A stretch of 64,000 nucleotides of DNA. It comes from Escherichia coli. GTDB taxonomy: Bacteria > Pseudomonadota > Gammaproteobacteria > Enterobacterales > Enterobacteriaceae. The notes beneath the pieces were generated by a model, which was not told the origin of the DNA, made no database searches, and saw nothing but the letters and a program-made list of their open reading frames with translations. Position 1 is the first letter of the stretch, and the number at the start of each line of letters is the position of its first letter. Made by a program: the position numbers and the translations under genes. The stretch is from the NCBI RefSeq assembly GCF_013122565.1, contig NZ_CP053258.1; one strand, 5' to 3'. Shown here in pieces: positions 1 to 50,232 of this stretch.

Positions 1-1051
1 CAATTAATTTAAATCTTATTATTTGATTAACAAAGCATCATCATTACTGCATCTTATTCTCTATATCTTTTACGTCGGGGTAGATTCTTTATGGTCATTA
101 CGGGCAGGCGACATTTCATTATATTACCATTTGCATTCACGCTTGTAACCCTTAAGAGTTATATAAAAAGGAAAGAGTTCTTGCTCATGGTATTACTGAG
201 ATCGGATTAACCATGAGGTTAGCTATATAGAGAGCTTTGGCTTTGCGACAATTGGCTTAAGCAGCCACATTATGCCTGGCTTATCGTTGAAAGGGAGAAA
301 GAAGAGCAAAACGGTTTGGCAAGCTTTCATTCCCATCTAATAGCAATCACCGCTATACATCATCCCTTAACGTATTCTGGTCTTCATAAAAATGTTATTC
401 TAAATTAAAGATTGTAATGATTTTAATAATGTTGTTATTATTTTGCAACAAATCAATATAACACAATGATTATTCGCGATTTTTTATTAGTTAAGAGGAA
501 TTGTTTTTACAGATTGCGCTACAATTCCGCTCATTTCTCACCACAGGAAAAGCTGAAGTAATCTTAAATGACTGTATTAACCCTTTTCTCCGCTGCCAGC
601 ACTCTTAAATATCGTTGTTTTATTCTTATAAAAACGGCTTTTTTGACATAAAAAGTAATAGGTTCAGCCATTATGCAGAATTTACAACCTGAGAAAATCG
701 CAAAAAACACTCTTATTCAGAATAAAACTCTGTTTATCATCTTTCGGTAAGCATTAAATTACTATATTACCGTTCAACATGAGTATGAATGAAAATTCAG
801 TTGTTATACATGTGATGAATGTCATATATTGTGCTCATCGATTGCAGGACATCGCTATTCTTTTAGAGATACAGATATCACGCTGTTACTCTCTAATATA
901 AAGAACACGCAAAGATTAGTTGTGTTACTGCAGTTGTTATGTCGCATATGGAATGCCCATTGTTACATCTTTAGTAAAAAGCTTTATTCACTTTCAAAAT
1001 TTTTACTCCATGAAGATAGGCTGTTTTGCTGCAAGCAATTGAGTTAGTGCA

Positions 1052-1675
1052 ATGAACAAGAACTTACTAACAAGGGTAATTATCATTTCGGATGATCTAT
1101 ATTACCTTCAGGGATTAAGTGCAAAACTAGGTCACCATTATCGTTTTTTTATTGAGTGTTTTTTTTGTTCTCAAAATGCATGCAATAATGACCTAAGTAC
1201 ACTTAGATTTGACAACCGCTTTACAAAAAACGTACTTCTTGTCGCAGTGGATGACGTAAGTATACTTGCAAAACTGCCAGATTTGGCCAGGTTTTTAATG
1301 ATTGTTTCACTAAGAAAGATGAAAAACAGAAATATCTTCTTTTCACTTTCAGAGCAAACATTCATTAGCCGATATATAAAATTGAATAAACTCATTACTT
1401 TGATTAAAAGTACTGATAAAGACCAGCAAGTCAGGCAGGTGACTCTGACAAGGTATGAGTGGGATATCTATTACTTATTTTTTAAGATAGATAACAAAAG
1501 AATATTGCACACCCTGCTAAAAAAGGATGTCAAGTATATTAGTCACTATAAAATATCAGTTTTTAATAAGTTTGAAATTGCTTGTGATAGTGATGGCTTT
1601 TACATTTTCAAGGCACTTATACAGTTAAGGAGATTTACCCGTTTTAAAAACGTCAGATTGTATCAATTGCATTAA
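1052..1675 (+). CDS. Putative LuxR-family (FimZ/EcpR-like) transcriptional regulator immediately upstream of the fimbrial operon; the receiver-like N-terminus appears degenerate
   Basis: 207-aa ORF. C-terminal segment LTRYEWDIYYLF...KDVKYISHYKISVFNKF resembles a LuxR/FixJ-type HTH. Very AT-rich codon usage. Position directly 5' of the fimbrial major subunit gene. No similarity search was run. Confidence 0.45.
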   Translation: MNKNLLTRVIIISDDLYYLQGLSAKLGHHYRFFIECFFCSQNACNNDLSTLRFDNRFTKNVLLVAVDDVSILAKLPDLARFLMIVSLRKMKNRNIFFSLSEQTFISRYIKLNKLITLIKSTDKDQQVRQVTLTRYEWDIYYLFFKIDNKRILHTLLKKDVKYISHYKISVFNKFEIACDSDGFYIFKALIQLRRFTRFKNVRLYQLH

Positions 1676-1717
1676 TTAACTCGTTCTATATTAACTCTAA
1701 ATTTCAAGGATATTAAT

Positions 1718-2278
1718 ATGTTTTCTACTTTCAAAAAAGCAGCTCTGCTGGCAGCTATTGCATTACCTTTTTCAACTATGGCTGCGCCTACAGTCACTTT
1801 TCAGGGTGAAGTAACCGATCAGACCTGTTCCGTAAATATCAACGGTCAAACCAATTCAGTAGTATTGATGCCGACCGTAGCCATGGCTGACTTCGGTGCA
1901 ACTTTAGCTGATGGTCAGAGCGCAGGCCTGACGCCGTTTACGGTTTCTGTGTCTAACTGCCAGGCTCCAACTGGTACAGATCAGGCAATCAACACCACCT
2001 TCCTGGGCTACGACGTTGACGCTAGCACGGGTGTTATGGGAAACCGTGATACCAGCAGCGATGCGGCGAAAGGCTTTGGCATTCAGTTAATGGATTCCAG
2101 CACTTCTGGTAACCCAATAACTCTGGCTGGCGCGACTAACGTACCGGGTCTGACCCTGAAAGTTGGCGATACCGAAGCCAGCTACGACTTCGGTGCGCGT
2201 TACTTCGTTATCGATAGCGCTGCTGCCACTGCCGGTAAAATTACCGCTGTCGCAGAATACACCCTGAGCTACCTCTAA
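1718..2278 (+). CDS. Fimbrial major subunit (type-1/FimA-like pilin) of a chaperone-usher pilus
   Basis: 186 aa with an N-terminal signal peptide (MFSTFKKAALLAAIALPFSTMAA). FimA-like mature N-terminus TVTFQGEVTDQTCSV and a second Cys forming the conserved pilin pair. C-terminal beta strand ending AVAEYTLSYL. Confidence 0.8.
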   Translation: MFSTFKKAALLAAIALPFSTMAAPTVTFQGEVTDQTCSVNINGQTNSVVLMPTVAMADFGATLADGQSAGLTPFTVSVSNCQAPTGTDQAINTTFLGYDVDASTGVMGNRDTSSDAAKGFGIQLMDSSTSGNPITLAGATNVPGLTLKVGDTEASYDFGARYFVIDSAAATAGKITAVAEYTLSYL

Positions 2279-2342
2279 TTAATCTACTGGCTGGCAGTAA
2301 ATGTCAGCCAGTATTTCTTTGCACAATTAATAGTGATTTTTC

Positions 2343-3065
2343 ATGGACATGGAAAAGATAAGAATGAACATTTTTGCATATTTACTGGTACTTGTATTTT
2401 CCATGAGCATGAGCAGCAGCGCGTTTGCCAGCGTGGTAATGACCGGAACCCGTATTATTTTCCCTGGTGACGCAAAGGAAAAAACCATCCAGTTGCGAAA
2501 TACCAGCGATCAGCCCTATATCATTAATATCCATGTTGAGGATGAACGTGGTTCTGACAAGAATATACCGTTTATGCCAACCCCGCAGACATTTCGCATG
2601 GAAGCTGCCGCAGGTCAGGCGTTACGCCTGCTCTACACTGGTGATAATTTACCGCAGGATCGCGAGTCTGTTTTCTGGTTTAGTTTCAGTCAACTACCTT
2701 ATCTGAATAAGAACGATAAAAGTCAGAACCAGCTCATCCTGGCCCTGACTAATCGAGTCAAAATTTTCTATCGTCCCAGCTCAATTGTCGGTAAATCCAG
2801 TGACGCGCCAAAAAACCTGACTTACCAAGTAAAACAGAACCGCATTGAAGTGACGAATCCCACGGGCTATTACGTCGTGATTCGCGCCGCTGAACTGCTT
2901 AATAACGGTAAAAAAGTCCCCCTCGCGAATTCCGTCATGATTGCTCCTCAAGGCAAAACTGAATGGACACTACGCACTGGCATCAGCGTCGCTCCCGGTG
3001 CGCAGATTCATTTAGTGACCGTCAATGACTATGGCGTAAATGTCACGTCTGAGCATGCCTTATAA
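2343..3065 (+). CDS. Periplasmic fimbrial chaperone (PapD/FimC family)
   Basis: 240-aa ORF containing a signal peptide and PapD-like motifs (RIIFPGDAKE..., LPQDRESVFWFSF, RVKIFYRP). The true start may be an internal Met (MNIFAYLL...). Confidence 0.85.
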   Translation: MDMEKIRMNIFAYLLVLVFSMSMSSSAFASVVMTGTRIIFPGDAKEKTIQLRNTSDQPYIINIHVEDERGSDKNIPFMPTPQTFRMEAAAGQALRLLYTGDNLPQDRESVFWFSFSQLPYLNKNDKSQNQLILALTNRVKIFYRPSSIVGKSSDAPKNLTYQVKQNRIEVTNPTGYYVVIRAAELLNNGKKVPLANSVMIAPQGKTEWTLRTGISVAPGAQIHLVTVNDYGVNVTSEHAL

Positions 3066-3117
3066 GCTCTTTCCCCTTTTTTGAGCGGTATCCTTTTTCA
3101 CGCACGAGTATGTCGAG

Positions 3118-5640
3118 ATGAATAAATCCGTTGTGTCAATTTCTGCGGCAATATTGGTTTTACTCTGCCAGCCGGTTATGGGGAAAGAAATCTCACCCGC
3201 TACACCGTCAGATGAAGATAACTACACCTTTGACCCGCAACTCTTTCGCGGCAGCAGATTTAGTCAGTCGTCATTGGCAAAACTGACAACTCGTGAGTCT
3301 GTTGCACCGGGTAATTATAAAATGGATATCTACACCAATAATAAGTTGTCAGGCAGTTGGAATGTCACGTTCAAAGAAGCCGCTGATGGTCGCGTTCTGC
3401 CCTGCCTGACGCCTGAAGTCGCGGACGCGATAGGCCTCAAAACAGGGGAAGATAAGGGTGAAAAAGATCCGGTCTGTACCTTTGCTCAGGAACTCGCTCC
3501 CGGCATCACCAGCCAGACACAGTTGTCACAACTACGCCTTGACTTGTCGGTGCCTCAGAGTCAAATGATTAGTCGCCCTCGCGGCTATGTCCCCCCCAGC
3601 GAGCTGGATACCGGAGCATCGCTGGCGTTCATGAATTATATTGCCAACTATTACAACGTTGCCTATTCAGGGCAGAATGCTCATAGCCAGCGTTCGCTAT
3701 GGGCATCATTTAATGGTGGCATCAACCTTGGTGCCTGGCAATATCGTCAGTTATCCAACATGACCTGGGATAATGACAAAGGGAATCAGTGGAACAATAT
3801 TCGTAGCTATTTGCAACGCCCGCTGCCCGCCATAAATAGCCAGTTAATGATGGGGCAGCTTATCACCAGCGGAAGATTTTTCTCTGGACTCAGTTATCAC
3901 GGCGTTAGTCTCGCGACCGATGAACGTATGCTGCCGGACTCCATGCGCGGCTATGCGCCGACTATTCGCGGCGTGGCCGCAACAAACGCCAGAGTCTCGG
4001 TAATGCAAAACGGTCATGAAATATATCAGACCACCGTGGCTCCTGGCCCTTTCGAGATAAACGACCTATACCCCACCAGCTACAGCGGCGATCTGGATGT
4101 CACCGTTACGGAAGCTAACGGCGCAGTCAGTCGTTTCAGTGTCCCCTTTTCAGCCGTACCAGAATCGATGCGTCCAGGAACTTCCCGTTATAACGTGGAA
4201 GTAGGTAAAACGCAGGATAGTGGTGATGACTCGATGTTTGGTGACCTTACCTGGCAGCACGGGATGACTAATACGCTGACATTTAACAGTGGTTCGCGTA
4301 TCGCTGATGGCTACCAGGCGCTGATGCTGGGCGGAGTCTATGGCAGTTCGCTGGGGGCATTTGGGGCAAACCTCACTTGGTCCCATGCGCGTGTTCCCGA
4401 AAGCGAAGCGCAGAGTGGTTGGATGTCGCAATTAACCTGGAGTAAAACTTTCCAGCCTACTTCAACCACCGTCTCCCTGGCAGGTTATCGATACTCTACC
4501 AGCGGCTATCGTGATCTGGCTGATGTGCTGGGAGAGCGTCATGCTGCCAGCAATAAACAGTCATGGGACTCCAGCCAGTGGCGTCAACAGTCGCGCTTCG
4601 ATCTTACGTTAAGTCAGAGCCTTGCGAATTACGGCAACCTGTTTGTGTCAGGTTCAACACAGAACTACCGTGGCGGCAAAAGCCGTGATACACAGCTTCA
4701 GTTAGGTTACAGCAATAGCTTTAGCCATGGCATCAGTATGAACCTTTCCGTCGGACGCCAAAGAATGGGCGGCTATAAAGACAATTCTGATGATATGCAG
4801 ACGGTAACATCCCTTTCATTCTCATTCCCACTTGGCGGCAATGGACCTCGTGTACCAAGTCTTAGCAACAGCTGGACCCATTCAACTGACGGTAGCTCGC
4901 AATTACAAAGCTCGCTAACCGGAATGCTTGATGAAGCACAGACCACCAACTACAGCCTGAACGTCATGCGCGATCAACAATATAAGCAGACGACGCTTAG
5001 CGGAAACATGCAAAAACGTTTTTCACAAACTACCGTCGGATTGAACGCATCGAAGGGCCAGGATTACTGGCAGGCTTCAGGTAACGTACAAGGCGCGATG
5101 GCTGTGCATGGTGGCGGCATTACTTTCGGACCTTATCTGGGTGAAACGTTCGCCCTGGTCGAAGCTAAAGGCGCAGAAGGTGCAAAAGTCTATAACTCCA
5201 GTCAGCTGGAAATTAATGACAGTGGCTATGCGCTTGTTCCGGCAGTAACGCCCTATCGATACAACCGTATATCTCTCGATCCACAAGGAATGGATGGCGA
5301 TGCCGAGTTGGTCGACAGTGAAAGACAGGTAGCACCGGTTGCAGGTGCGGCGGTGAAAGTAATTTTCCGTACCCGTCCTGGTAAAGCGTTGCTGATTAAA
5401 TCCCGCATGGCAGATGGTTCGGAACTGCCAATGGGAGCCGATGTGCTGGATGAGAATAATACAGTCGTCGGTATAGCCGGTCAGGGGGGGCAAATTTACC
5501 TCCGCACAGAACAGACAAAAGGCCACTTGTCAGTTCGCTGGGGTGAAGGTGCTAACGATAGCTGCCAATTGCCCTTTGATATCAGCGGGAAGGACAGCAA
5601 TAGCCCTATCATCCGCCTGAATGAAACCTGTCAGTCTTGA
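3118..5640 (+). CDS. Outer-membrane fimbrial usher (FimD/PapC family)
   Basis: 840 aa with a signal peptide, of typical usher size, placed between a chaperone gene and an adhesin gene. Gln/Ser/Asn-rich beta-barrel composition. Confidence 0.9.
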   Translation: MNKSVVSISAAILVLLCQPVMGKEISPATPSDEDNYTFDPQLFRGSRFSQSSLAKLTTRESVAPGNYKMDIYTNNKLSGSWNVTFKEAADGRVLPCLTPEVADAIGLKTGEDKGEKDPVCTFAQELAPGITSQTQLSQLRLDLSVPQSQMISRPRGYVPPSELDTGASLAFMNYIANYYNVAYSGQNAHSQRSLWASFNGGINLGAWQYRQLSNMTWDNDKGNQWNNIRSYLQRPLPAINSQLMMGQLITSGRFFSGLSYHGVSLATDERMLPDSMRGYAPTIRGVAATNARVSVMQNGHEIYQTTVAPGPFEINDLYPTSYSGDLDVTVTEANGAVSRFSVPFSAVPESMRPGTSRYNVEVGKTQDSGDDSMFGDLTWQHGMTNTLTFNSGSRIADGYQALMLGGVYGSSLGAFGANLTWSHARVPESEAQSGWMSQLTWSKTFQPTSTTVSLAGYRYSTSGYRDLADVLGERHAASNKQSWDSSQWRQQSRFDLTLSQSLANYGNLFVSGSTQNYRGGKSRDTQLQLGYSNSFSHGISMNLSVGRQRMGGYKDNSDDMQTVTSLSFSFPLGGNGPRVPSLSNSWTHSTDGSSQLQSSLTGMLDEAQTTNYSLNVMRDQQYKQTTLSGNMQKRFSQTTVGLNASKGQDYWQASGNVQGAMAVHGGGITFGPYLGETFALVEAKGAEGAKVYNSSQLEINDSGYALVPAVTPYRYNRISLDPQGMDGDAELVDSERQVAPVAGAAVKVIFRTRPGKALLIKSRMADGSELPMGADVLDENNTVVGIAGQGGQIYLRTEQTKGHLSVRWGEGANDSCQLPFDISGKDSNSPIIRLNETCQS

Positions 5641-5655
5641 TACAGAGAAAACCCG

Positions 5656-6990
5656 ATGTCTAAATCGACTTTATTACACATTCTGATTAGCTCCATCATA
5701 TTGGTGGCACTAATACAATCATCCGCTTGGGCTAACTGTACAAACACACAGATAGGTCAAACTGAAGATGGTCGGACAGCGCTTATTGAGTTCGGAAAAA
5801 TTAATATGACCGACACCTATTTTGCGCCAGCAGGTTCACTCCTCGCGACAACGGTCGTACCTCCCACTAACTACACATCAGGTGGCGCGACAGGAAGCTC
5901 AGTATTGTGGGAATGTGATGCAACAGATTTGCCAAACATCTATTTTCTGGTCGCTACCAATGGCGACGACCGCGTGGGGGGCTTTTACGATGCAGGCGGG
6001 CCTGATGGTCTGAGTGATGTCTATGCCACCTGGTTCGCTTTTGTCGGTCTCAAGCAGACCATGGCGGGCGTGACGCTTGGTCGTTACTGGAAGAAAGTGC
6101 CCATCACCAGTTATGCCACTCAGGGAACTAAAATCCAGATTCGCTTACAGGATATCCCTCCTCTTCATGCTGAGCTTTATCGCATCAGTACGCTACCTGA
6201 TACATCAGCAACAACAAGTTGGTGCGGTAATAATAATACAGATGGTAGTGGAGTCGGATTCGCAAAACCTTCCGGTACAATCTATAACTGTGTTCAGCCC
6301 AATGCCTATATTCAGCTTTCCGGTACCAGCGGCATTTTATTTGGTCATGATGAGCCCGGCGAAGATAGTTCTGTTCATTGGGATTTCTGGGGTGCTGATA
6401 ATGGTTTTGGTTACGGAATGCGTTCGGCCAATCGACTCTACAACAATGCCACCTGCGTTGCCCGCAGCGCCACGCCGTTAGTATTGCTGCCGACAATTGC
6501 AGAAGCACAACTGAATGCGGGCATGGAAAGTACCGGTAATTTTAATGTCCGCGTCGAGTGTAGTAACTCGGTTCAATCAGGGATTAGCGATACTCAGACA
6601 GCATTAGGAATCCAGGTGTCTGAAGGTGCATATACAGCGGCGCAAAAACTGGGGATTATCAATAGCAACGGCGGCGTCAGCGCCCTGGTCTCTGATAATT
6701 ATGACGCAGCAGAGATGGCAAAGGGCGTTGGGATCTACATTTCTAACAGTGCTCACCCCGATACGGCGATGACGCTGGTTGGTCAACCGGGCATCGCGAA
6801 GTTAACCCCCGGAGGAAATGCAGCGGGGTGGTATCCTGTATTTGAAGGGGCAACATTAGAAGGTGCGACTCACCCCGGATACTCCAGCTATAGTTACTCT
6901 TTTATCGCCCGGTTGAAGAAACTGCCAAATCAGACAGTCAGTGCGGGAAAAGTGCGGGCAACGGCTTATATATTGGTGAAAATGCAATGA
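5656..6990 (+). CDS. Putative fimbrial tip adhesin (two-domain: N-terminal lectin-like domain plus C-terminal pilin domain)
   Basis: 444 aa with a signal peptide (MSKSTLLHILISSIILVALIQSSAWA) and several Cys pairs. Pilin-like C-terminus ...VRATAYILVKMQ. Located after the usher; its stop overlaps the downstream chaperone start (ATGA). Confidence 0.6.
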   Translation: MSKSTLLHILISSIILVALIQSSAWANCTNTQIGQTEDGRTALIEFGKINMTDTYFAPAGSLLATTVVPPTNYTSGGATGSSVLWECDATDLPNIYFLVATNGDDRVGGFYDAGGPDGLSDVYATWFAFVGLKQTMAGVTLGRYWKKVPITSYATQGTKIQIRLQDIPPLHAELYRISTLPDTSATTSWCGNNNTDGSGVGFAKPSGTIYNCVQPNAYIQLSGTSGILFGHDEPGEDSSVHWDFWGADNGFGYGMRSANRLYNNATCVARSATPLVLLPTIAEAQLNAGMESTGNFNVRVECSNSVQSGISDTQTALGIQVSEGAYTAAQKLGIINSNGGVSALVSDNYDAAEMAKGVGIYISNSAHPDTAMTLVGQPGIAKLTPGGNAAGWYPVFEGATLEGATHPGYSSYSYSFIARLKKLPNQTVSAGKVRATAYILVKMQ

Positions 6991-7676
6991 AATCCGTTTT
7001 GCTCCTCTTAACCGTCTTGTTCGTACAGTCAGTGGAAGCCGGCATCATGCCGGCTTCTTCACGGATTATTTATCGCGATGGCGATCGGGAAAAGACACTG
7101 ATGCTGGTCAATACCAATGACTATCCGGTACTGGTGCAAAGTTGGGTAGATAATGGTGAAGGTTCCCCAGAATCTGCTTCTCCCCCCTTTGTGGTGCTGC
7201 CACCGGTTTTCCGCCTGGCTGCGAGACGAACCCAGGGGTTGCGGATTATCTATAATCATGACCCACTTCCCCAGGATCGCGAATCTGCATTCTGGTTAAA
7301 TCTTTATGAAATGCCGCCAGAAACTCCCCATCAAGATCCCACACATTTAACGCTGGCAATGAATACGCAACTTAAAATCTTTTACAGGCCAAAATCTGTA
7401 ACTATGACGCCCCAAGAAGCTATGCGTAAAATAAGTTGGCATCTGGGTAACGACGGCAGCAGTAGCTATATTGAGCTTAATAACCCAACACCACTGAATA
7501 TCTCTTTCACCTCCATCAGCATTGGGGCTACAAAGGTGCAGCAAGAAAGCGATATGATGATAAAACCCTTCAGTCAACGACGGTACTGGTTAGCAAGTAA
7601 TAACGTTAGTGGTGTGGTTGCGGCGACATATCTCGATGATAATGGTGCACAGATAAAACAACAATTAGCGCAATAA
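6987..7676 (+). CDS. Second periplasmic fimbrial chaperone (PapD-like)
   Basis: 229 aa with a signal peptide and the motifs RIIYRDGDREKTLMLVN, LPQDRESAFWLN and LKIFYRPKS. Start codon overlaps the adhesin stop codon, suggesting translational coupling. Confidence 0.8.
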   Translation: MKSVLLLLTVLFVQSVEAGIMPASSRIIYRDGDREKTLMLVNTNDYPVLVQSWVDNGEGSPESASPPFVVLPPVFRLAARRTQGLRIIYNHDPLPQDRESAFWLNLYEMPPETPHQDPTHLTLAMNTQLKIFYRPKSVTMTPQEAMRKISWHLGNDGSSSYIELNNPTPLNISFTSISIGATKVQQESDMMIKPFSQRRYWLASNNVSGVVAATYLDDNGAQIKQQLAQ

Positions 7677-7821
7677 TGCTCTGAGTGGTATGTAAACTCA
7701 TCGCGATGGTTCAACGCTAACGAATAACCACTATACCCACCTGAAGTACCGGAAGTGGAGAAATGACAACATCTCTCCACTCCATTTTCCAGTCAAAACA
7801 CCTCAACGCAGCCAAAAATCG

Positions 7822-8613
7822 TTAACGAATTGAATATCCACCATCAATGACTAATAGTTGTCCATTGACATAATCTGAAGCGGCACTGGCGAGGAACACC
7901 ATTGCGCCCATAAGATCCTGTGCCCTTCCCCAGCGTTGAGCCGGTATACGCCCTTTTATTAACTCTTTTATTTTAGGGTTATTATAAATAATAGCGGTCA
8001 TTTCACTCACATAATATCCTGGGGCGATACCATTAATCTGAATATTATATTCCGCAAAATCATCGGCATACGCTTTGGTCAGCCCCGCTAAAGCATGTTT
8101 AGTCGCCGCATACCCTGGCGACCAACGTCCCCCATGAAATGACAATACGGAACACATATTAATAATTTTCCCTTTTCTTTGCGGGACAAATATATTCAAT
8201 GCGGCCTGGCTCATATCGAATGCAGCATTCAGGTTGAGATTAATCATCGGATCCCAGTCGTTTCGATTGAAATCGATAGGACGATTAAAGTTACACACGC
8301 CCGCGTTATTGACCAGAATATCTAACTGACCGAAACGCTCCAGACACCTATTAATAATGGTGCATGCTGCATCAGGTTTTGTTATGTCTATTGTCATAAA
8401 CTCAACTTCAACGCCTTCATGAGTTAAATGCTTTAAATATCTATTATCAGGCTCTTTGATGTCTACCAACAATAGATTAGCCCCTGCTTTGGCCAGAGCC
8501 GAGCATAAGCCTCTCCCCAGCTCACCCGCGGCCCCAGTTACGATGGCCACCTTGTTATGTAATGAAAAAAAATCCAATGAAAAATCTTCAATAGAAAAGC
8601 TCATATCACACAT
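7822..8613 (-). CDS. Short-chain dehydrogenase/reductase, KduD-like (2-dehydro-3-deoxy-D-gluconate 5-dehydrogenase paralog)
   Basis: 263 aa. Rossmann motif VAIVTGAAGELG, NNAG motif, catalytic Y-x3-K (SPGYAATKHA), and a C-terminus ASDYVNGQLLVIDGGYSIR closely resembling KduD. Start may be the Met three codons downstream. Confidence 0.8.
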   Translation of the reverse strand: MCDMSFSIEDFSLDFFSLHNKVAIVTGAAGELGRGLCSALAKAGANLLLVDIKEPDNRYLKHLTHEGVEVEFMTIDITKPDAACTIINRCLERFGQLDILVNNAGVCNFNRPIDFNRNDWDPMINLNLNAAFDMSQAALNIFVPQRKGKIINMCSVLSFHGGRWSPGYAATKHALAGLTKAYADDFAEYNIQINGIAPGYYVSEMTAIIYNNPKIKELIKGRIPAQRWGRAQDLMGAMVFLASAASDYVNGQLLVIDGGYSIR

Positions 8614-9291
8614 TGCTCCTTATGAGTAAGTAATATTTAAGGGATAATTTAAGTAATTTTTAGATTTCAATAAAAAAATATAAACATTAAAACTCAGCAT
8701 GAATAATAAACATCAAATCTTATATACATTTAAGTAGTGATGTATCACGTAAAAATATAGTCATCATAGATGTTATGCAGTACGCACAAAAAAACAGACT
8801 GGATTTGCTTGCTGATCTATAATCTTTATCTAAATTACTATTGGCGCTTTGGATAATAACATAAGCATATATTACCTCCTAGCAATAATAGACATAACCT
8901 CATATCAAGGTGTCACTGGTAAATAATCGGATAAAGGACAGTACCGGTCGGCACATAGAGCTTCTTCTATTTCACCAGAAGTGCACAGCAGGGAACTACC
9001 AATCACACGGTTAGTGTCATGGGTGGAGGATGCGTCCCGTTCTTTCCCAATAACGGGGATACGCAGTTTTTATCAGTACATGCAGAAAAACCCCTAATTC
9101 ACATCACTGCAGAAAGCATTTAATAGAAATATACATCGTTTAAGAATTTCAATTAAATCAAGATTATTCTTAAAAATCAGATAATTCACATTTGCATTTT
9201 TAGGAAATTATACTATAGTGCAATTAATGTTCTTGCCTTTATTTTGTAAGTAATACTGGATTTGTAATACACAACTAAGGTATAAAATGTA

Positions 9292-10104
9292 ATGATCTAC
9301 ATTATAAATGATGAAGTAAGATTCAACTCATCATCTAATAAGTTAACATCACTCCTTACATCAGAGGAAGTGATACTCACTTATCCTGCGGGAAAATGCT
9401 TAAAATTACTTTTAGATAACGCTTATAGTGTCGTATCGCACAATCAATTCTTTGAAAAAGTCTGGAGCGATAGCAGCGCTGAAGTCGCAACCAATACTTT
9501 ATATCAAAACATTTCGATGATAAGACGCTCCTTTCGTGAAATCAGCTCATCGACGATATTTAATGATATTATCAGAACGGTGCCGCGTAAGGGTTTTAAA
9601 ATCAATGAAGAAATCAACATAACTGTTCTCGACAATAATCATACTGAGAATGAAAGTGTTGAGAGTGAAGAGGATGGTACCCACATTGAAAATATAAATA
9701 AAAATCATGTTGCAAAAGATATTTTCACCACAAAGAATACATTACTTATAGTGTACTTTTTTGCGGCATGGGGGATAGTGTATATATCTTCTTATTTTTT
9801 CGATATGGCTTTTCAAAGCAAAGCTCACACTATAAAAAAAACAGATGCTTTCTCAAATTATGCTCAACATCCTACTCAGGAAGGGTGTAGCTATTTCTAT
9901 GACAATATATATTTTAATTCCGTAGACATGTTATCACCGATTATTGAAAAATTGCAGAAAATGGAAATTAACTGCAAAATACATCCTTACATTTACATTG
10001 CAACAAATGATAGCATGAGCGGGTTTTATGCTTTCACCTGTAGTCAGATGTTAAACTCTGAATCACCAAATAATTGTAATTCTCTCTATTATAAAGCGGA
10101 GTAA
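9292..10104 (+). CDS. Membrane-anchored ToxR/CadC/MarT-like transcriptional regulator (N-terminal OmpR-type winged helix, one TM segment, Cys-containing periplasmic domain); resembles E. coli YqeI
   Basis: 270 aa. Winged-helix signature ...FFEKVWSDSSAEVATNTLYQNISMIRRSF...IIRTVPRKGFKI. Acidic linker followed by a hydrophobic segment NTLLIVYFFAAWGIVYISSYFF. About 100-aa C-terminal domain with four or more Cys. A GG-containing RBS-like motif lies upstream of the ATG. Confidence 0.7.
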   Translation: MIYIINDEVRFNSSSNKLTSLLTSEEVILTYPAGKCLKLLLDNAYSVVSHNQFFEKVWSDSSAEVATNTLYQNISMIRRSFREISSSTIFNDIIRTVPRKGFKINEEINITVLDNNHTENESVESEEDGTHIENINKNHVAKDIFTTKNTLLIVYFFAAWGIVYISSYFFDMAFQSKAHTIKKTDAFSNYAQHPTQEGCSYFYDNIYFNSVDMLSPIIEKLQKMEINCKIHPYIYIATNDSMSGFYAFTCSQMLNSESPNNCNSLYYKAE

Positions 10105-10108
10105 TCAT

Positions 10109-10600
10109 ATGACTCAAAGATATTTTCTATTTGCGGGAATAATTTTATGTGCTTTTATTGCAGCAATTCTTAGCCATATTGCGTTTCATCATGCCAATGA
10201 ACCAGCAGAGCAAAACATATCATGTAATGCCCATGTTATTAATTTCACCGATCATACGAAAATGGATCAATACTTTTCGTTAAATATGATTTCTGAAAAT
10301 AATACAGGGAATATGTATCTCACGGGTGCTTACACGGTAAATGGGAAAAAAATGGGTTTCATCCGCCGATATGTGAGTTTTACATACAAGAAATTCCGTG
10401 ATACCGTTTATTTCACCACAGTTAAAATACAAAAAATACAAAAAGATGATAACATTAGTGATGAAATCCTTGAAAATATCACTTCTGATTTTTTCATAAA
10501 AGTAGACACCTCAATTAATTTTTATGTTACACGTCAAAATGATTACAACTACGTATTCTCTACAGGCAGGACACCACGCTTCATATGTATTTCCCACTAA
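10109..10600 (+). CDS. Small N-terminally anchored periplasmic partner protein (ToxS/FidL/YqeJ-like) of the upstream ToxR-like regulator
   Basis: 163 aa. Starts 4 nt after the upstream stop (coupled). Single N-terminal TM (YFLFAGIILCAFIAAILSHIAF) followed by an Asn/Thr-rich periplasmic domain. Size and arrangement match ToxS/FidL-type partners. Confidence 0.5.
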   Translation: MTQRYFLFAGIILCAFIAAILSHIAFHHANEPAEQNISCNAHVINFTDHTKMDQYFSLNMISENNTGNMYLTGAYTVNGKKMGFIRRYVSFTYKKFRDTVYFTTVKIQKIQKDDNISDEILENITSDFFIKVDTSINFYVTRQNDYNYVFSTGRTPRFICISH

Positions 10601-10700
10601 CAGTAGTGTTGATCATTGCGCTTGTCATCAGATAATAACCTTCTGATGGCTTTGTTTATATTTTAAGGCAATAAAAAACATTCCAATATTGGTTAATTAT

Positions 10701-12215
10701 TTATCTGTTTACATACCACTGATAAAACTCTGTCGCTTTCATTGGTTTTGCATATAAGTACCCCTGAACTAATGTCACGTTATTATGAATAAGATATTCC
10801 GCCTGGTGAGGAGAACTGACACCTTCTGCAATCGTTATCAAATTTAGTCGATTACTCAGCTTAATAATAATATCTAAAACTGGCGTTTCGTCTTCCGCTG
10901 TAGTGAGTGTGTCTATAAAGCTTTTATCTATTTTAAGATAATCAACAGACAACTTTTGTAGAAGGCCAAGGGAACAATATCCCGTGCCAAAATCATCAAC
11001 TGCAAATTCACAGCCATGGATCCTTAATTCATTTATTTTCTGTAATGCAAGATCAGTGTCTTCAACCAGATTGCGTTCGGTAATCTCAAGGACAATATTA
11101 AATTTATCAGATATTGCATTTTTAATATGTAAAACATCAGCAACAAAGTCAGGATGTGCAAGATGTTCCGCGGCAATATTTATCCCAAGGTGAAACGGTT
11201 TTTTCACTTTCCAGCTTTGTACATCCTGAATAATCAGTTCAAAGAGATGCTTAGTTAACGGTATTATTAAATTTTCCTCTTCTGCCGCGCGGATAAAAAC
11301 TACCGGAGATATATTTTTACCATCTTCGCGTTGCCAGCGCATTAACGCTTCAACCCCCAGACACGCTTTGGTTGTCGTGTCGCACACTGGTTGATAATGC
11401 ACAGAAAATTCTCCGGATGACATTCCTTTTTTAATTTCTTCTGCCAGCGACATTTTCCGTGACATCCAGTGCTGCCATAAGAAATAGAGAATAAAAGAAA
11501 GAATAATAGATAACGGCAAAATATAAAGCACATTGCTAATGATATAGGGATATAACGAAATCATCGGCGTAGTAACTGTAAGACGAGCCTGACTGTTCGC
11601 AGAATTAAAATCTCTTTTTAACATATATAACCTGTCATTATTATTTACACCACTAATAATTGCAGGCCCTTCAGTAAAGCGAAGAGAAAATGAATCATCA
11701 TTCTCATCATCAAGAACATCCATTAGATCATAGATATATCGTGACTCGACAATACTAAAAGCTGTCATATTATTCCCTAATGGCATAAGGAACACTATGG
11801 CTGTTTTACCTGGTACAAAACTTGTTCCGCTAATTGATACTATGCGTGATTCTTTATTTTTATTGTGAAAGCTCGTACCGTAAACATCGTTAACATTCAT
11901 TTTTTTGAAACCGCTAACTGAAGAACATATTTGGAAATTATTTTCTATAAGACCCGTTGTTCGAACATAGGGAGTCAATGCTCCGTTAGCAATCAACTGC
12001 TCCAGGATATCTTTGCAGGGTTTCATCACCAGAATAGAAGTAAGCTTTGTCGTATGCTGGACAATTTGCGTAACATTATCAAGCTGTTTTAACAGAATAC
12101 CGGCGGTAATTGTCGTATCTCTATTCATTTGAAATATTGACATAGCAAACGATAGTAACACCCCCAGAATGCCTGGTATTATAATGAGTACAAACATTTT
12201 TTTGTTGAATACCAT
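10701..12215 (-). CDS. pdeT: CSS-motif EAL-domain c-di-GMP phosphodiesterase (PdeT/VmpA-like), absent from K-12
   Basis: ORF 10701..12311. Probable start is the Met at 12215 (MVFNKKMFVLIII...), immediately before TM1. Periplasmic domain with CSS motif (QICSSVSG) and a second Cys, then TM2. EAL domain with intact EAL (GVEALMRW), LEITE and DDFGTGY motifs. The gene name is assigned from memory of the EHEC vmpA/pdeT locus next to dgcT. Confidence 0.75.
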   Translation of the reverse strand: MVFNKKMFVLIIIPGILGVLLSFAMSIFQMNRDTTITAGILLKQLDNVTQIVQHTTKLTSILVMKPCKDILEQLIANGALTPYVRTTGLIENNFQICSSVSGFKKMNVNDVYGTSFHNKNKESRIVSISGTSFVPGKTAIVFLMPLGNNMTAFSIVESRYIYDLMDVLDDENDDSFSLRFTEGPAIISGVNNNDRLYMLKRDFNSANSQARLTVTTPMISLYPYIISNVLYILPLSIILSFILYFLWQHWMSRKMSLAEEIKKGMSSGEFSVHYQPVCDTTTKACLGVEALMRWQREDGKNISPVVFIRAAEEENLIIPLTKHLFELIIQDVQSWKVKKPFHLGINIAAEHLAHPDFVADVLHIKNAISDKFNIVLEITERNLVEDTDLALQKINELRIHGCEFAVDDFGTGYCSLGLLQKLSVDYLKIDKSFIDTLTTAEDETPVLDIIIKLSNRLNLITIAEGVSSPHQAEYLIHNNVTLVQGYLYAKPMKATEFYQWYVNR

Positions 12216-12408
12216 ACATGTTTCCCCACGCATCAGGGTGATGCAACCTAAGAAATTATAGTACAATTGCCAGTAAAAGCGGGTGATAGCAGATTGATCA
12301 ATGATAAGCATTTAAGATCATATAGTACTATGATATTTCTGAAAATTGTTACGCAAGTCTGCGAATAGCTATTTAGCGCTTACCAAAATCACCCGCTAAA
12401 ATGCCGCT

Positions 12409-13767
12409 TCATGGTGACTCACAAAAATTCACCACATCCCTCACAACCACCTTATTACGCCCGGTCTCTTTCGCCTCGTATAGTGCGTTATCAGCCAGTC
12501 GATAGATCTCATTCGGGTTTAACGCATTTTCCTGAGTCACAACAGCGCCAATACTAATCGTCACTTTTTGTGGTATGGCGTATTCAGGATTATCGCCAGT
12601 TAAACGCTCAACATTTTCCCGAATCCTTTCCGCTAAAGCTTTCGCACGTTCAGTATCGATGTCCGTCAGCAAGACGCCAAACTCTTCGCCGCCGACGCGC
12701 GCAAAAAGGTCATCTGGCCGTATGCTTTTCCCAATGATATTCACCACTGTTTTTATCACCTGATCGCCAACCGGATGCCCCCAGGTATCGTTGACTTTTT
12801 TGAAGTGGTCGATATCCATAATCATGACGCAATAAGGCGTTTTTTTGGCTGATGCTGATTGAACTGTCAGTTCATTAAAAAAATAATTTCTGTTAAATAT
12901 ATTGGTTAAGGAATCGCGATGTGCAATGTCCTTTGTTACTCGTAGCGCACTGAATATATGGCACATAAATATTACCATAACGGTTAACTTACTGACTACT
13001 TCAATAGTGCGACTAATATACCAAGTGGACACGCTATACCTGCTCATAAATAACAGAGAGATATTGTACAGTACGGCACAAAAAGCAATCACCGTCACTC
13101 CATTCCAGATATCATAGCGTAAACCATTAAAGTATAGATTAACCGAAAGCAAGGTTAACCACATGAAAATCATTATGGTAACATATGATGTTTTCCAAAC
13201 CACCTGATCATTTTCATTGGTTAACTCGGCAATGTGTAAATTGTAGCTCTCATAATGACTAGAAAGTATGTGAGCAACTATCGGCCCCCCAACAACAAAA
13301 AACAAACTTATGCACAAAGTCATTTTTTTGGAAAATAAATTGCGCTGTTTTGTGTTTTCACTAACTTTACTCACCAATGCCAGAAATATTAATATGCACA
13401 AACTCATCTGACGAAACAAATAATAAATTGCAATGTCATTTTGAACAACACTGCTTGTCAAACGCCCCTCAATAATTTGCTGAATGATAATGACGGTTTT
13501 AACAAAGTAAATCAAACAACTCAGAAAAGCCAAACTAAGTATACAGTTTGAAAATTGCCTACGGTCATAAATGAAATACAACTGCATAAAAATAAATGCA
13601 ACAGTATCGATAAAAAATAAAGCAATCATTACCATCAGATAGGTTGATCGTGGAACAACTTCCTCAACGCCTGGCTGATTAAACCAACTATTCACCAAAA
13701 CCAAAGCAAGCCCAAACAATAAGCTCACTAATACAGTACTACTAATTCTCAAATAGTCTTTTTCCAT
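12409..13767 (-). CDS. dgcT: Diguanylate cyclase DgcT (YcdT): multi-TM sensor domain plus GGDEF domain
   Basis: Near-identical to K-12 YcdT from MEKDYLRISS... (the ORF extends 24 codons further upstream to 13839). GGEEF active site and RPDD I-site are present. Divergent from pgaA, as in K-12. Confidence 0.95.
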   Translation of the reverse strand: MEKDYLRISSTVLVSLLFGLALVLVNSWFNQPGVEEVVPRSTYLMVMIALFFIDTVAFIFMQLYFIYDRRQFSNCILSLAFLSCLIYFVKTVIIIQQIIEGRLTSSVVQNDIAIYYLFRQMSLCILIFLALVSKVSENTKQRNLFSKKMTLCISLFFVVGGPIVAHILSSHYESYNLHIAELTNENDQVVWKTSYVTIMIFMWLTLLSVNLYFNGLRYDIWNGVTVIAFCAVLYNISLLFMSRYSVSTWYISRTIEVVSKLTVMVIFMCHIFSALRVTKDIAHRDSLTNIFNRNYFFNELTVQSASAKKTPYCVMIMDIDHFKKVNDTWGHPVGDQVIKTVVNIIGKSIRPDDLFARVGGEEFGVLLTDIDTERAKALAERIRENVERLTGDNPEYAIPQKVTISIGAVVTQENALNPNEIYRLADNALYEAKETGRNKVVVRDVVNFCESP

Positions 13768-14119
13768 AAAGCTACACCAATCTGTAGGTTGTAGATCCCT
13801 TTCTATTATTAATAGATATAAGAACTGTACTGTTGTCAATATGAAATTCCGACCACAAACAATACCGATGATGATAGTTGCAGCCGCAATTATTATTACC
13901 TTAGTGCTTTATACATTCTTTGCGACAAGACAGGCTTGCAAATACTTATAAATGGTTATAAGGAAATCCTTATGAAACATTAATTCATAGATAGATTAGG
14001 AATAACAATTGAATCCGTGAGTACAGTAACGCTGCATTTCATCAGGACTTTCGAAAAATCCGATATCATGCATCGGAATTTACTGATTTAATTATTTTAA
14101 TCCTAATTTATTTTGAAAA

Positions 14120-14354
14120 AGGCATTGGGATTTATGCCGTATTCCTGAAGATCCTCATCATTGGAATGGATTTTCGGGCGACAAAAGGATTTTATATGGA
14201 CACTCTGCTCATCATTTCTTCTTCTCATCATCAACAATTCACGTCTCTCTTCCGCGTTTAATAACGGATTATGAGGTGCAAAAAATATCTTTCTTTTCAG
14301 TTACCTGTAATTAGATACAGAGAGAGATTTTGGCAATACATGGAGTAATACAGG
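14120..14354 (+). promoter_or_regulatory. pgaA 5' leader with multiple GGA motifs (CsrA-binding type), the last overlapping the SD and start codon
   Basis: Several GGA motifs are seen (ttgggatt, ttggaatggatt, aaaggatt, atatggaca, aacggatt, catggagtaatacaggATG). It is established that CsrA represses pgaA translation via its leader. Confidence 0.5.
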
Positions 14355-16778
14355 ATGTATTCAAGTAGCAGAAAAAGGTGCCCGAAAACCAAATGGGCTT
14401 TGAAAATTCTTACTGCCGCATTTTTAGCAGCGAGTCCCGCGGCGAAGTGTGCTGTTAATAACGCCTATGATGCATTGATTATTGAAGCTCGCAAGGGAAA
14501 TACTCAGCCAGCTTTGTTATGGTTTGCACAAAAATCAGCACTCAGTAATAACCAGATTGCTGACTGGTTACAGATTGCCTTATGGGCCGGGCAAGATAAA
14601 CAGGTTATTACCGTTTACAACCGCTACCGTCATCAGCAATTACCAGCGCGTGGTTATGCAGCTGTCGCCGTAGCTTATCGTAACCGGCAACAATGGCAAA
14701 ACTCGCTTACACTGTGGCAAAAGGCGCTCTCTCTGGAGCCGCAAAATAAGGATTATCAACGGGGACAAATTTTAACCCTGGCAGATGCGGGTCACTATGA
14801 TACTGCGCTGGTTAAACTTAAGCAGCTTAACTCTGGAGCACCGGACAAAGCCAATTTACTCGCAGAAGCTTATATCTATAAACTGGCGGGGCGTCATCAG
14901 GATGAATTACGGGCGATGACAGAGTCATTACCTGAAAATGCATCTACGCAACAATATCCCACAGAATACGTGCAGGCATTACGTAATAATCAACTTGCTG
15001 CCGCGATTGACGATGCCAATTTAACGCCAGATATTCGCGCTGATATTCATGCCGAACTGGTCAGACTGTCGTTTATGCCTACGCGCAGTGAAAGTGAACG
15101 TTATGCCATTGCCGATCGCGCCCTCGCCCAATACGCTGCATTAGAAATTCTGTGGCATGATAACCCAGACCGCACTGCCCAGTACCAGCGTATTCAGATT
15201 GATCATCTTGGTGCGTTATTAACTCGCGATCGTTATAAAGACGTTATTTCTCACTATCAGCGTTTAAAAAAGACGGGGCAAATTATTCCGCCCTGGGCGC
15301 AATATTGGGTTGCGTCGGCTTATCTCAAAGATCATCAGCCGAAAAAAGCACAGTCAATAATGACCGAGCTCTTTTATCACAAGGAGATCATTGCCCCGGA
15401 TTTATCCGATGAAGAACTTGCGGATCTCTTTTACAGCCACCTGGAGAGTGAAAATTATCCCGGCGCGCTAACTGTCACCCAACATACCATTAATACTGCG
15501 CCGCCTTTCCTTCGGTTAATGGGCACGCCTACGAGCATCCCGAATGATACCTGGTTACAGGGGCATTCGTTTCTCTCAACCGTAGCAAAATATAGTAATG
15601 ATCTTCCTCAGGCTGAAATGACAGCCAGAGAGCTTGCTTATAACGCACCAGGAAATCAGGGACTGCGCATTGATTACGCGAGTGTGTTACAAGCCCGCGG
15701 TTGGCCTCGTGCAGCAGAAAATGAATTAAAAAAAGCAGAAGTGATCGAGCCACGTAATATTAATCTGGAGGTTGAACAAGCCTGGACAGCATTAACGTTA
15801 CAAGAATGGCAGCAGGCAGCTGTCTTAACGCACGATGTTGTCGAACGTCAACCGCAAGATCCCGGCGTTGTACGTTTAAAACGTGCGGTTGATGTACATA
15901 ATCTTGCAGAGCTTCGTATAGCTGGTTCAACAGGAATTGATGCCGAAGGCCCGGATAGTGGTAAACATGATGTCGACTTAACCACCATCGTTTATTCACC
16001 ACCGCTGAAGGATAACTGGCGCGGTTTTGCTGGATTCGGTTATGCCGATGGACAATTTAGCGAAGGAAAAGGGATTGTTCGCGACTGGCTGGCGGGTGTT
16101 GAGTGGCGGTCACGTAATATCTGGCTCGAGGCGGAGTACGCTGAACGCTTTTTCAATCATGAGCATAAACCCGGCGCGCGCCTGTCTGGCTGGTATGATT
16201 TTAATGATAACTGGCGTATCGGTTCGCAACTGGAACGCCTCTCTCACCGCGTTCCATTACGGGCAATGAAAAATGGTGTTACAGGCAACAGTGCTCAGGC
16301 TTATGTTCGCTGGTATCAAAATGAGCGGCGTAAGTACGGTGTCTCCTGGGCTTTCACTGATTTTTCCGACAGTAACCAGCGTCATGAAGTCTCAATTGAG
16401 GGTCAGGAACGCATCTGGTCTTCACCATATTTGATTGTCGATTTCCTACCCAGTCTGTATTACGAACAAAATACAGAACACGATATCCCATACTACAACC
16501 CTATAAAAACGTTCGATATTGTTCCGGCATTTGAGGCAAGTCATTTGTTATGGCGTAGCTATGAAAATAGCTGGGAGCAAATCTTCAGCGCAGGTGTTGG
16601 TGCCTCCTGGCAAAAACATTATGGCACGGATGTCGTCACCCAACTCGGCTACGGGCAACGCATTAGCTGGAATGACGTGATTGATGCTGGCGCAACGCTA
16701 CGCTGGGAAAAACGACCTTATGACGGTGACAGAGAACACAACTTATACGTTGAATTCGATATGACATTCAGATTTTAA
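14355..16778 (+). CDS. pgaA: PGA (poly-beta-1,6-N-acetylglucosamine) outer-membrane export porin PgaA
   Basis: 807 aa; matches K-12 PgaA (MYSSSRKRCPKTKWALKILTAAFLAASPAAK...); TPR-rich N-terminal domain and C-terminal beta-barrel. Confidence 0.95.
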   Translation: MYSSSRKRCPKTKWALKILTAAFLAASPAAKCAVNNAYDALIIEARKGNTQPALLWFAQKSALSNNQIADWLQIALWAGQDKQVITVYNRYRHQQLPARGYAAVAVAYRNRQQWQNSLTLWQKALSLEPQNKDYQRGQILTLADAGHYDTALVKLKQLNSGAPDKANLLAEAYIYKLAGRHQDELRAMTESLPENASTQQYPTEYVQALRNNQLAAAIDDANLTPDIRADIHAELVRLSFMPTRSESERYAIADRALAQYAALEILWHDNPDRTAQYQRIQIDHLGALLTRDRYKDVISHYQRLKKTGQIIPPWAQYWVASAYLKDHQPKKAQSIMTELFYHKEIIAPDLSDEELADLFYSHLESENYPGALTVTQHTINTAPPFLRLMGTPTSIPNDTWLQGHSFLSTVAKYSNDLPQAEMTARELAYNAPGNQGLRIDYASVLQARGWPRAAENELKKAEVIEPRNINLEVEQAWTALTLQEWQQAAVLTHDVVERQPQDPGVVRLKRAVDVHNLAELRIAGSTGIDAEGPDSGKHDVDLTTIVYSPPLKDNWRGFAGFGYADGQFSEGKGIVRDWLAGVEWRSRNIWLEAEYAERFFNHEHKPGARLSGWYDFNDNWRIGSQLERLSHRVPLRAMKNGVTGNSAQAYVRWYQNERRKYGVSWAFTDFSDSNQRHEVSIEGQERIWSSPYLIVDFLPSLYYEQNTEHDIPYYNPIKTFDIVPAFEASHLLWRSYENSWEQIFSAGVGASWQKHYGTDVVTQLGYGQRISWNDVIDAGATLRWEKRPYDGDREHNLYVEFDMTFRF

Positions 16779-16786
16779 GGATAAAT

Positions 16787-20123: not shown

Positions 20124-20124
20124 T

Positions 20125-20538
20125 ATGAACAATTTAATTATTACGACCCGACAATCGCCAGTACGTTTACTGGTTGATTATGTTGCCACAACCATCTTGT
20201 GGACATTATTTGCTTTGTTCATATTCTTATTCGCCATGGATCTGCTGACGGGTTATTACTGGCAAAGCGAGGCCCGAAGCCGACTTCAGTTCTATTTTTT
20301 GCTGGCAGTGGCGAATGCCGTCGTGTTAATTGTCTGGGCGCTGTACAATAAGCTGCGTTTTCAAAAACAGCAGCATCATGCAGCCTACCAATATACGCCG
20401 CAAGAATATGCAGAGAGCTTAGCAATACCTGATGAGCTCTATCAGCAACTACAAAAAAGCCACAGGATGAGCGTACACTTCACCAGCCAGGGGCAAATAA
20501 AAATGGTGGTTTCAGAAAAAGCGCTAGTCCGGGCATAA
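20125..20538 (+). CDS. pgaD: PGA synthase accessory subunit PgaD (c-di-GMP responsive with PgaC)
   Basis: 137 aa; two TM segments; matches K-12 PgaD. Confidence 0.95.
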
Positions 20539-25366: not shown

Positions 25367-25831
25367 GGCAAAGAAAAACACAAGCGGAATGTTTATAAAA
25401 TGATGTTGGAATGTAAACAAAGAGAGGTAATGCCAGGGGATATAAACGATTATTCCAGGGTAGAAAGATGGGATTGTTTGCAAAGAACCATGTGTTCTTG
25501 CCGGATGCCGCGTAAACGCCATATCCAGCCGACAAAACTGTCCAGACTCAATGCATCAGAGCTTCCATGTAAAACTGATAAGCGGGTGTATCAAGCAATT
25601 TCGTCCATCCGCGATTATCAAATCTAACTTTTTGCCCGGAACATAATAACAGCTCGGGTGTTGGTGGCGTCAAAATCGCTGAAGCGTTCCCCGAAGGCCG
25701 GGACAGCAGGGGGCGGCGGCGATTGGCCGCCCCCTGCGCGCTCCCTGCACCATTCAATTTATATGGCGAGGCACATTAAGGGAGCGCAACCCGCTGCTGA
25801 AGCCAAACAAAACCGCCGCAGGCTAAGTCCC

Positions 25832-50150: not shown

Positions 50151-50232
50151 GATAGCCTCATCAATAATAAGGCTTTATGCTAGATGCATTCCGCTTTGCG
50201 ACTCAACATTTTTCACCTTAAGTGCACCGACC

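Follow-up and report, generated by a model that had tools for sequence, protein, structure and literature searches.

O-island 47 (OI-47) of enterohaemorrhagic Escherichia coli (EHEC) O157:H7 comprises z1528–z1556, or 31,727 bp (PMC8565820). Its gene vmpA (pdeT, Z1528) has been described as an insertion immediately downstream of ycdT (PMC4287979), and the encoded protein—so far as the work of Branchu et al. 2013 is relayed in PMC4076661 and PMC5635171—degrades cyclic di-GMP (c-di-GMP) and shifts the balance of motility and biofilm in O157:H7; PdeT also figures as number six in a list of E. coli CSS-domain phosphodiesterases (PMC5897775). A second gene of the island, grvA, is z1531 (PMC10877973) and encodes a ToxR-family regulator that is activated by RcsB and lowers gadW/gadE, which raises LEE (locus of enterocyte effacement) expression (PMC8565820, PMC10877973). 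Reviews limit OI-47 to the serotypes O157:H7, O55:H7 and O145:H28 (PMC10877973, PMC3893438). Here, we compare with this island a block of genes that lies beside dgcT (ycdT) in a stretch of 64,000 nucleotides of E. coli DNA (assembly GCF_013122565.1, contig NZ_CP053258.1), referred to in the following as the window. Coordinates are in window numbering, position 1 being its first letter, and positions of open reading frames (ORFs) are those of the ORF listing.

We consider it very probable that window 1–12397 is the dgcT-proximal third of OI-47, that the island itself is old, has no integrase and extends for about 33 kb between tRNA-serX and dgcT, and that K-12, together with 42% of E. coli, represents IS3-linked deletion derivatives of it. 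When positions 1–13839 were compared by megablast with 5,426 complete E. coli genomes, 376 of these gave full-length matches, O157:H7 matching at 98.3% identity and 100% coverage, while the best match (99.4%) was a Gambian human stool isolate. The block is collinear with the O157:H7 island, having the same gene order and the same position directly downstream of dgcT (Z1527), with pdeT (Z1528) as the first gene, and the proteins encoded in the window are 95–99.8% identical to their O157 counterparts. Thus position, gene order, nucleotide identity across the block and the inclusion of both pdeT/vmpA and grvA all correspond to OI-47 of O157:H7 strain EDL933. Newer RefSeq records already name block genes as pdeT, FidL or YqeJ family. 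The window starts inside the island, and the roughly 20 kb that would lie to its left, which include fatty-acid/polyketide-like genes, were read from the closest genome (strain 100181) and from O157. In the Gambian isolate and in an O157:H7 genome, the genes to the left of the window are, in order, a two-partner secretion pair, a holo-acyl carrier protein (ACP) synthase, a short-chain dehydrogenase/reductase (SDR), a FabZ-like protein, an ACP and an aminomethyltransferase and, further left, two ketosynthases, an ABC transporter, a full-length ACP S-malonyltransferase and ycdU.

The window differs from the EDL933 island in three respects: (i) its allele comes from a rare non-O157 lineage, 99.4% identical to baboon and Gambian human isolates; (ii) its grvA-fidL-pdeT segment has diverged further from O157 (dS 0.13–0.23) than its pilus genes have; and (iii) only 12.4 kb of the island lie inside it. 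An earlier note, made from this DNA alone, had proposed a strain-specific island beside dgcT; this is borne out, although the note overlooked that the island is the named and published OI-47, with characterised pdeT/vmpA and grvA. As the island, its phosphodiesterase and its regulator have all been published, the observation is genuine but ordinary, and what is new is of minor weight: a census of the site, nested IS3 deletions, carriers outside EHEC, a Pseudocitrobacter homologue and a predicted fold for orf207.

K-12, C3, BL21, AR_0089 and NU14 were positioned on a 72-kb reference from strain 100181, with the window coordinates extended leftwards. In these coordinates the island spans −20856 to 12397 (33.25 kb). 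K-12 retains −20856 to −19344, consisting of ycdU and 357 bp of the malonyltransferase gene (ymdE), followed by IS3 and then by the sequence from 12398 onwards; the resulting gap, −19344 to 12397, measures 31.74 kb, in agreement with the published size of OI-47. Since a full-length ymdE homologue and ycdU are found in island-bearing genomes about 19–21 kb further left, where the same island ends, K-12 represents what a deletion has left. Judged from these alignments, the ymdE pseudogene and ycdU of K-12 are not a segment of their own but the distal end of OI-47 that stayed behind, and the earlier suggestion that the block replaces an IS3/ymdE/ycdU segment of K-12 is therefore wrong.

The end of IS3 abuts window 12398, 11 bp past the dgcT stop codon, and this right junction is identical in 2,293 genomes, while the left junctions fall into three nested classes. 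The C3 type keeps 528 bp of ymdE (715 genomes), the K-12 type keeps 357 bp (about 1,469 genomes, the raw count of 2,184 including the C3 type as two joined pieces) and the BL21 type has lost ycdU as well (115 genomes). A right junction that stays fixed, combined with left end points that move in steps, is consistent with leftward-spreading deletions linked to IS3: IS3 would have inserted 11 bp after dgcT, and the island would then have been removed leftwards to three different end points. Moreover, identity between the K-12 remnant and the island-bearing strain is 98.8%, a value shared by the flanking core genes, and the remnant of C3 behaves likewise, which argues for vertical descent from an island-bearing ancestor.

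In a census of the serX-dgcT site, dgcT was found in 4,221 of the 5,426 genomes, and four states of the site together account for 4,096 of these. The IS3 scar seen in K-12 is the commonest state (2,293 genomes with the identical IS3/dgcT junction, 42%), followed by tRNA-serX directly abutting dgcT (1,138 genomes), the island block (376–378 genomes) and an unrelated integrase island of the NU14 type, in which the tRNA 3′ end is duplicated (289 genomes). The serX-dgcT gap is thus a general insertion hotspot. Strain specificity, as the earlier note had it, holds: neither K-12 nor most other E. coli possess the block, and its 376–378 carriers are far from a situation in which essentially all E. 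coli possess it and K-12 is the exception. With an island-only query and identity shares taken from the carriers sampled, about three quarters of the carriers lie at 98.2–98.3%, their stated serotypes being O157:H7, O157 or O55:H7, and O145 genomes have a partial copy (3786–12220). A further group of about 60 carriers at 95.4–97.6%, from human, chicken, deer and pig, was judged to be non-EHEC from the absence of an EHEC serotype label and from chromosomes of mostly 4.7–5.1 Mb. Only four genomes are at least 99% identical, a Guinea baboon isolate among them, and a few genomes have retained grvA, fidL and pdeT alone.

Several observations weigh against the proposed history of the site or against carrying OI-47 biology over to this strain. 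An intermediate with IS3 and an intact pdeT was found in none of the 5,426 genomes, so that the order of events is one that we infer. No integrase is annotated between ycdU and pdeT and no direct repeats flank the island at its borders, which means that it is not a classical tRNA-integrated element; the NU14-type island, by contrast, has both an integrase and a duplicated tRNA 3′ end. On the serX side, homology breaks about 54 bp past the tRNA, just beyond its terminator, and on the dgcT side, homology with island-free genomes stops at window 12443, within dgcT. The last 11–15 or so dgcT codons (12409–12443) exist in two unrelated-looking versions, ...RDVVNFCESP in the island and IS3 types and ...KEAEILINRKDDE in the empty and B2 types; DgcT ends in ...VVVKEAEILINRKDDE in island-free genomes and in ...VVVRDVVNFCESP in island and IS3-type genomes. 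These two dgcT 3′ ends follow the state of the site, and either may be the ancestral one. The window strain, furthermore, is not O157, its nearest relatives being the baboon and Gambian human isolates, and the LEE role of GrvA may therefore not apply to it. Finally, expression of the pilus and the roles of orf207 and of the SDR are putative. A search for a fimS-like invertible switch or for island-border repeats returned only AT-rich repeats at chance level. Downstream of serX, K-12 and BL21 contain RtT-like units in tandem, in which the 3′ end and terminator of the tRNA recur (L002 5594–6440; L005 5311–5830); none are present in C3, and an empty-site genome has a 41-bp fragment.

The features of the block and of its surroundings are as follows.

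1–1051, no strand: AT-rich intergenic DNA (33% GC), part of a gap of about 1.4 kb that separates orf207 from the island's two-partner-secretion gene, the latter outside the window
1052–1675, plus strand: orf207, orphan regulator-like protein of 207 amino acids (aa), with a predicted receiver-like domain and LuxR/FixJ-type four-helix DNA-binding fold
1718–2278, plus strand: major fimbrial subunit, 186 aa; NCBIfam fimbrial families, 98.4% aa identity to O157
2285–2313, plus strand: terminator-like hairpin directly 3′ of the pilin gene; 12-bp stem with 6 GC pairs, then a T run
2343–3065, plus strand: fimbrial chaperone 1; NCBIfam chaperone families, E 5e-49
3118–5640, plus strand: outer-membrane usher, 840 aa; NCBIfam PRK15248, 701 bits, under the cut-off of 996
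5656–6990, plus strand: StbD-like fimbrial protein of 444 aa, putative tip/adhesin subunit; PRK15247 (StbD), E 9.5e-33, under cut-off; a homologue carries Pfam Fimbrial
6987–7676, plus strand: fimbrial chaperone 2; NCBIfam
7822–8613, minus strand: SDR oxidoreductase, the nearest model being KduD (NF005390, 295 bits versus a cut-off of 369)
9292–10104, plus strand: grvA (z1531), ToxR-like winged-helix membrane regulator, 270 aa; 95.2% aa identity to the O157 protein, annotated as winged helix-turn-helix
10109–10600, plus strand: putative FidL/YqeJ-like membrane partner of GrvA, 163 aa; PF27292 and PF15941 on the 99%-identical cluster
10701–12311, minus strand: pdeT/vmpA (z1528), CSS-EAL c-di-GMP phosphodiesterase, 536 aa; Pfam CSS-motif and EAL, 97% aa identity to O157
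12312–12408, minus strand: dgcT-pdeT spacer, 97 bp by annotation; IS3 lies between 12397 and 12398 in 2,293 genomes
12409–13839 (annotated start 13767), minus strand: dgcT (ycdT), diguanylate cyclase, a core gene; GGEEF at residue 359, RxxD at residue 350
14355–20538, plus strand: pgaABCD, core genes from the ORF listing, outside the island and given for context only

By ORF listing, NCBIfam and Pfam, all of the genes named in the earlier note lie where it had placed them and are intact, and its five-gene chaperone-usher pilus (1718–7676), an SDR and its CSS-EAL phosphodiesterase were all confirmed; at the place of its ToxR-like pair lie a winged-helix membrane regulator (9292–10104) and a 163-aa putative partner (10109–10600). 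For every gene where it could be computed, the ratio of nonsynonymous to synonymous substitution rates (dN/dS) is below 1, indicating that the block genes are real and maintained. No Rfam match was obtained at E ≤ 0.1 over 1–14400, which includes the intergenic DNA at 1–1051, where repeats occur at chance level only. The window part of the island comprises four separate units: (i) a Stb-like pilus operon with its own LuxR/FixJ-fold regulator; (ii) a lone SDR; (iii) GrvA with its putative FidL/YqeJ-like partner; and (iv) PdeT/VmpA.

In composition, the island part (41.9% GC) differs from the rest of the window (52.4%) and is itself a mosaic. The description of the block as AT-rich applies to orf207, grvA, the 163-aa gene, pdeT and the intergenic DNA (32–37% GC) but not to the pilus genes (46–51%), with the SDR gene at 42%; dgcT, though a core gene, has 38.5% GC. 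Divergence from O157 is similarly uneven, dS being 0.13–0.23 for grvA-fidL-pdeT (9292–12397), 0.00–0.08 for the pilus genes and 0.02 for dgcT, and in comparison with strain 100181, grvA-fidL shows 100% identity but pdeT no more than 96.3%. These sequence differences give the impression of a recombination mosaic in grvA-fidL-pdeT, with several alleles of pdeT. The dgcT-pgaA intergenic region (13840–14354) is only 94–95% identical to O157 and strain 100181, as compared with 98.5–99.2% for the flanking genes.

The closest described relatives of the pilus are the Stb fimbriae of Salmonella (stbABCDE), with which it shares the order of subunit, chaperone, usher, large StbD-like subunit and second chaperone. 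Usher, two chaperones and fimbrial subunits were all confirmed by NCBIfam and by Pfam domains on homologous genes; PRK15247 is the best NCBIfam match of the StbD-like subunit and PRK15248 (StbC by inference) the top match of the usher, whereas StbB is just one among many chaperone matches. None of the Stb equivalog cut-offs is reached (usher 701 versus 996, StbD-like subunit 113 versus 363, StbB 115 versus 550), and the pilus is therefore a relative rather than an orthologue of Stb, from which it also differs in having its own upstream LuxR/FixJ-fold regulator. In its AT-rich setting, the operon would usually be silent. The adjacent SDR, called KduD-like in the earlier note, is indeed nearest to KduD, but it stays under the curated cut-offs of both KduD equivalogs (295 versus 369 bits and 250 versus 339 bits; NCBIfam) and thus fails this assignment. 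In strain 100181, the SDR gene (L001 25822–26604) has an internal stop and is a pseudogene, and in the O157:H7 genomes H107, H109 and H110, IS1203 lies within the pilus block, with a split usher annotation in H107 and H110; parts of the block are therefore in decay among some carriers.

For orf207, no match was found in Pfam, NCBIfam or PHROGs, nor in a profile search of PDB sequences even at E 10; a profile search of the full library returned only 12 representatives, and GerE was detected at E ≤ 0.1 in only two of the 11 family members. An AlphaFold2 model built from three sequences was unusable (predicted local distance difference test score, pLDDT, 37.6). After eight more relatives had been added, the 11-sequence alignment yielded a model with a pLDDT of 83 and a predicted template modelling (TM) score of 0.78, consisting of a receiver-like domain and four C-terminal helices. 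Foldseek ranked RcsB, NarL, VraR, EvgA, FixJ and VpsT first among PDB structures (E 2e-4, probability 1.0), and in AFDB50, "LuxR family" proteins of Citrobacter and Enterobacter ranked first (TM 0.73). The earlier label of LuxR-like is hence upheld by the predicted fold but not by any significant Pfam or NCBIfam sequence match. The positions that correspond to the acidic pair, phospho-acceptor, Ser/Thr and Lys of receivers are occupied by D14, D15, D/E67, S86 and R107. A candidate VpsT-like c-di-GMP-binding motif (the conserved F-[ILM]-S-R) was dropped, as it falls in the strand of the receivers' conserved lysine, a placement that was read from predicted secondary structure and not from structural superposition.

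The second regulatory unit resembles MarT-FidL of Salmonella SPI-3 and YqeI-YqeJ of K-12: a small membrane protein, putatively of the FidL/YqeJ type, comes directly after a ToxR-like winged-helix membrane regulator on an island that also bears an adhesin; GrvA is reportedly 30% identical to MarT (PMC10877973). It differs from these in that the known targets of GrvA are gadW/gadE and LEE rather than a neighbouring adhesin gene. Lowering of GadW/GadE by GrvA, as shown by others, reduces acid resistance and de-represses LEE. GrvA has weak NCBIfam matches to CadC and to response-regulator DNA-binding domains, its homologues carry PF00486, and it is 29% identical (E 2e-15) to an Enterobacter Trans_reg_C protein; a hydrophobic segment is visible in its sequence. 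Our own Pfam scan of the 163-aa protein gave no match, BLASTP linked it weakly (E 0.08) to a FidL_like protein, and its PHROGs matches were at chance level (E 0.02 and 0.35). The cluster with 99% identity to it, however, carries precomputed PF27292 (YqeJ_C) and PF15941 (FidL_like) assignments and the NCBI name FidL.

PdeT shares with the K-12 proteins PdeB, PdeC, PdeD and PdeG, as well as PdeN, a periplasmic CSS domain that is anchored in the membrane, contains two cysteines and precedes EAL, but differs from them in being island-borne and present in about 7% of genomes. Its Pfam matches (CSS-motif PF12792, E 1e-12; EAL PF00563, E 6e-64) are accompanied by intact catalytic motifs (EAL321, EITE409, DDFGTG439, KIDK460 and EGV), and its CSS domain, with membrane segments on both sides, contains the conserved pair Cys99 and Cys129, the latter within CSS129. 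Control by redox state and DegP has been shown for PdeC and PdeB, and by analogy PdeT would be controlled through its periplasmic cysteine pair as PdeC is. The true start of pdeT is likely Met33 at 12215, after a GGGGAA motif, a reading of the sequence that fits an NCBIfam alignment beginning at residue 39. DgcT, for its part, has its RxxD site five residues upstream of GGEEF. In the spacer RNA, a perfect 10-nt inverted repeat (AGCGGGTGAT / ATCACCCGCT), its arms 100 nt apart, closes a long hairpin (z = −3.1) that is followed by a U run. The 5′ arm (12388–12397) lies in the spacer and the 3′ arm (12278–12287) within the annotated pdeT ORF; the hairpin buries the annotated ATG and may stop dgcT transcripts. 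In K-12-type genomes, the IS3 insertion falls precisely where one of the arms ends. A scan of genome contigs with PdeT returned only distant EAL proteins (23–33% identity) and no context outside E. coli.

The earlier note had gone further, suggesting that the island, dgcT and pgaABCD form a coordinated module for surface colonisation that combines adhesin, matrix polysaccharide and c-di-GMP synthesis and breakdown. We regard such a single co-evolved and co-regulated module as unlikely. It is true that pdeT follows dgcT on one strand, with 97 bp but no canonical terminator between the annotated genes, and that PdeT-type genes (about 55% identity), the nearest relatives of PdeT outside E. coli, also adjoin adhesin loci in Enterobacter and Citrobacter: the Enterobacter hormaechei relative neighbours a chaperone-usher operon and a Trans_reg_C/FidL_like pair, and the Citrobacter relative a 2,372-aa invasin-like protein and an EcpR_N regulator, so that the link of this type of phosphodiesterase with adhesins recurs in other islands. 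However, adjacency of the block to dgcT is explained by the hotspot nature of the site, which in other genomes holds an unrelated integrase island, and the 2,293 genomes that lost the block (42%) kept dgcT and pga. Furthermore, Pseudocitrobacter has an OI-47 homologue (L021 1–10500; L023 1–19600) whose gene order agrees from the fatty-acid-like genes as far as the GrvA/FidL-like pair, but without pdeT and next to neither dgcT nor pga, being flanked by unrelated genes. Its pilus proteins are 72–89% and its regulators 51–59% identical to those of the island, and the regulators are thus evolving much more rapidly than the structural genes. The spacer hairpin and U run may also end dgcT transcripts. 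Regulation points the same way, as pga and ycdT are under the control of CsrA and NhaR. Induction of ycdT in cattle faeces was reported without Z1528, and grvA has been published as RcsB-controlled and acting on gadE/LEE (PMC8565820, PMC10877973). A single module with dgcT and pga is thus not supported.

A narrower proposal retains the recurrence of PdeT-type CSS-EAL proteins as adhesin-island cargo, paired with MarT/FidL-like or LuxR-fold regulators, which would tie the production of a new adhesin to local removal of c-di-GMP; in E. coli, dgcT and pdeT would then form a read-through pair that, with the spacer as an attenuator, sets the c-di-GMP supply to PgaCD. We view this as speculative and quite improbable. 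Weakest of all, and in our judgement hardly tenable, is the view that OI-47 is a recent acquisition confined to O157:H7, O55:H7 and O145:H28, with the IS3/ymdE/ycdU of K-12 as an unrelated alternative filling of the site: reviews do call the island exclusive to these serotypes (PMC10877973, PMC3893438), and about three quarters of the sampled carriers are at the O157/O55 identity level, but the alignments already contradict it, because ymdE and ycdU belong to the island, the K-12 and C3 remnants diverge as the flanking core genes do, some 60 non-EHEC genomes and four of the window's 99.4% type carry the island, and 2,293 genomes bear the IS3 scar.

Two further sites in the window differ from related genomes. 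The efeU-putP gap (about 25454–25831) measures about 0.4 kb, as compared with about 2.5 kb, including a 1,344-bp hypothetical gene, in O157 and strain 100181. At 50026–52977, a 983-aa ORF is found where torS is expected; in strain 100181 (L025 1–11039), otherwise the closest genome, the place beside torT is taken instead by a sensor diguanylate cyclase and by tail genes of a lambdoid prophage.

The Pseudocitrobacter homologue shows pdeT to be an add-on and not a core part of the island. Useful for genome annotation and for work with K-12 are the origin of the K-12 ymdE pseudogene and ycdU from OI-47, the finding that the IS3-scarred state is the commonest one among complete E. coli genomes, and the occurrence of the island outside the EHEC lineage set by the reviews.

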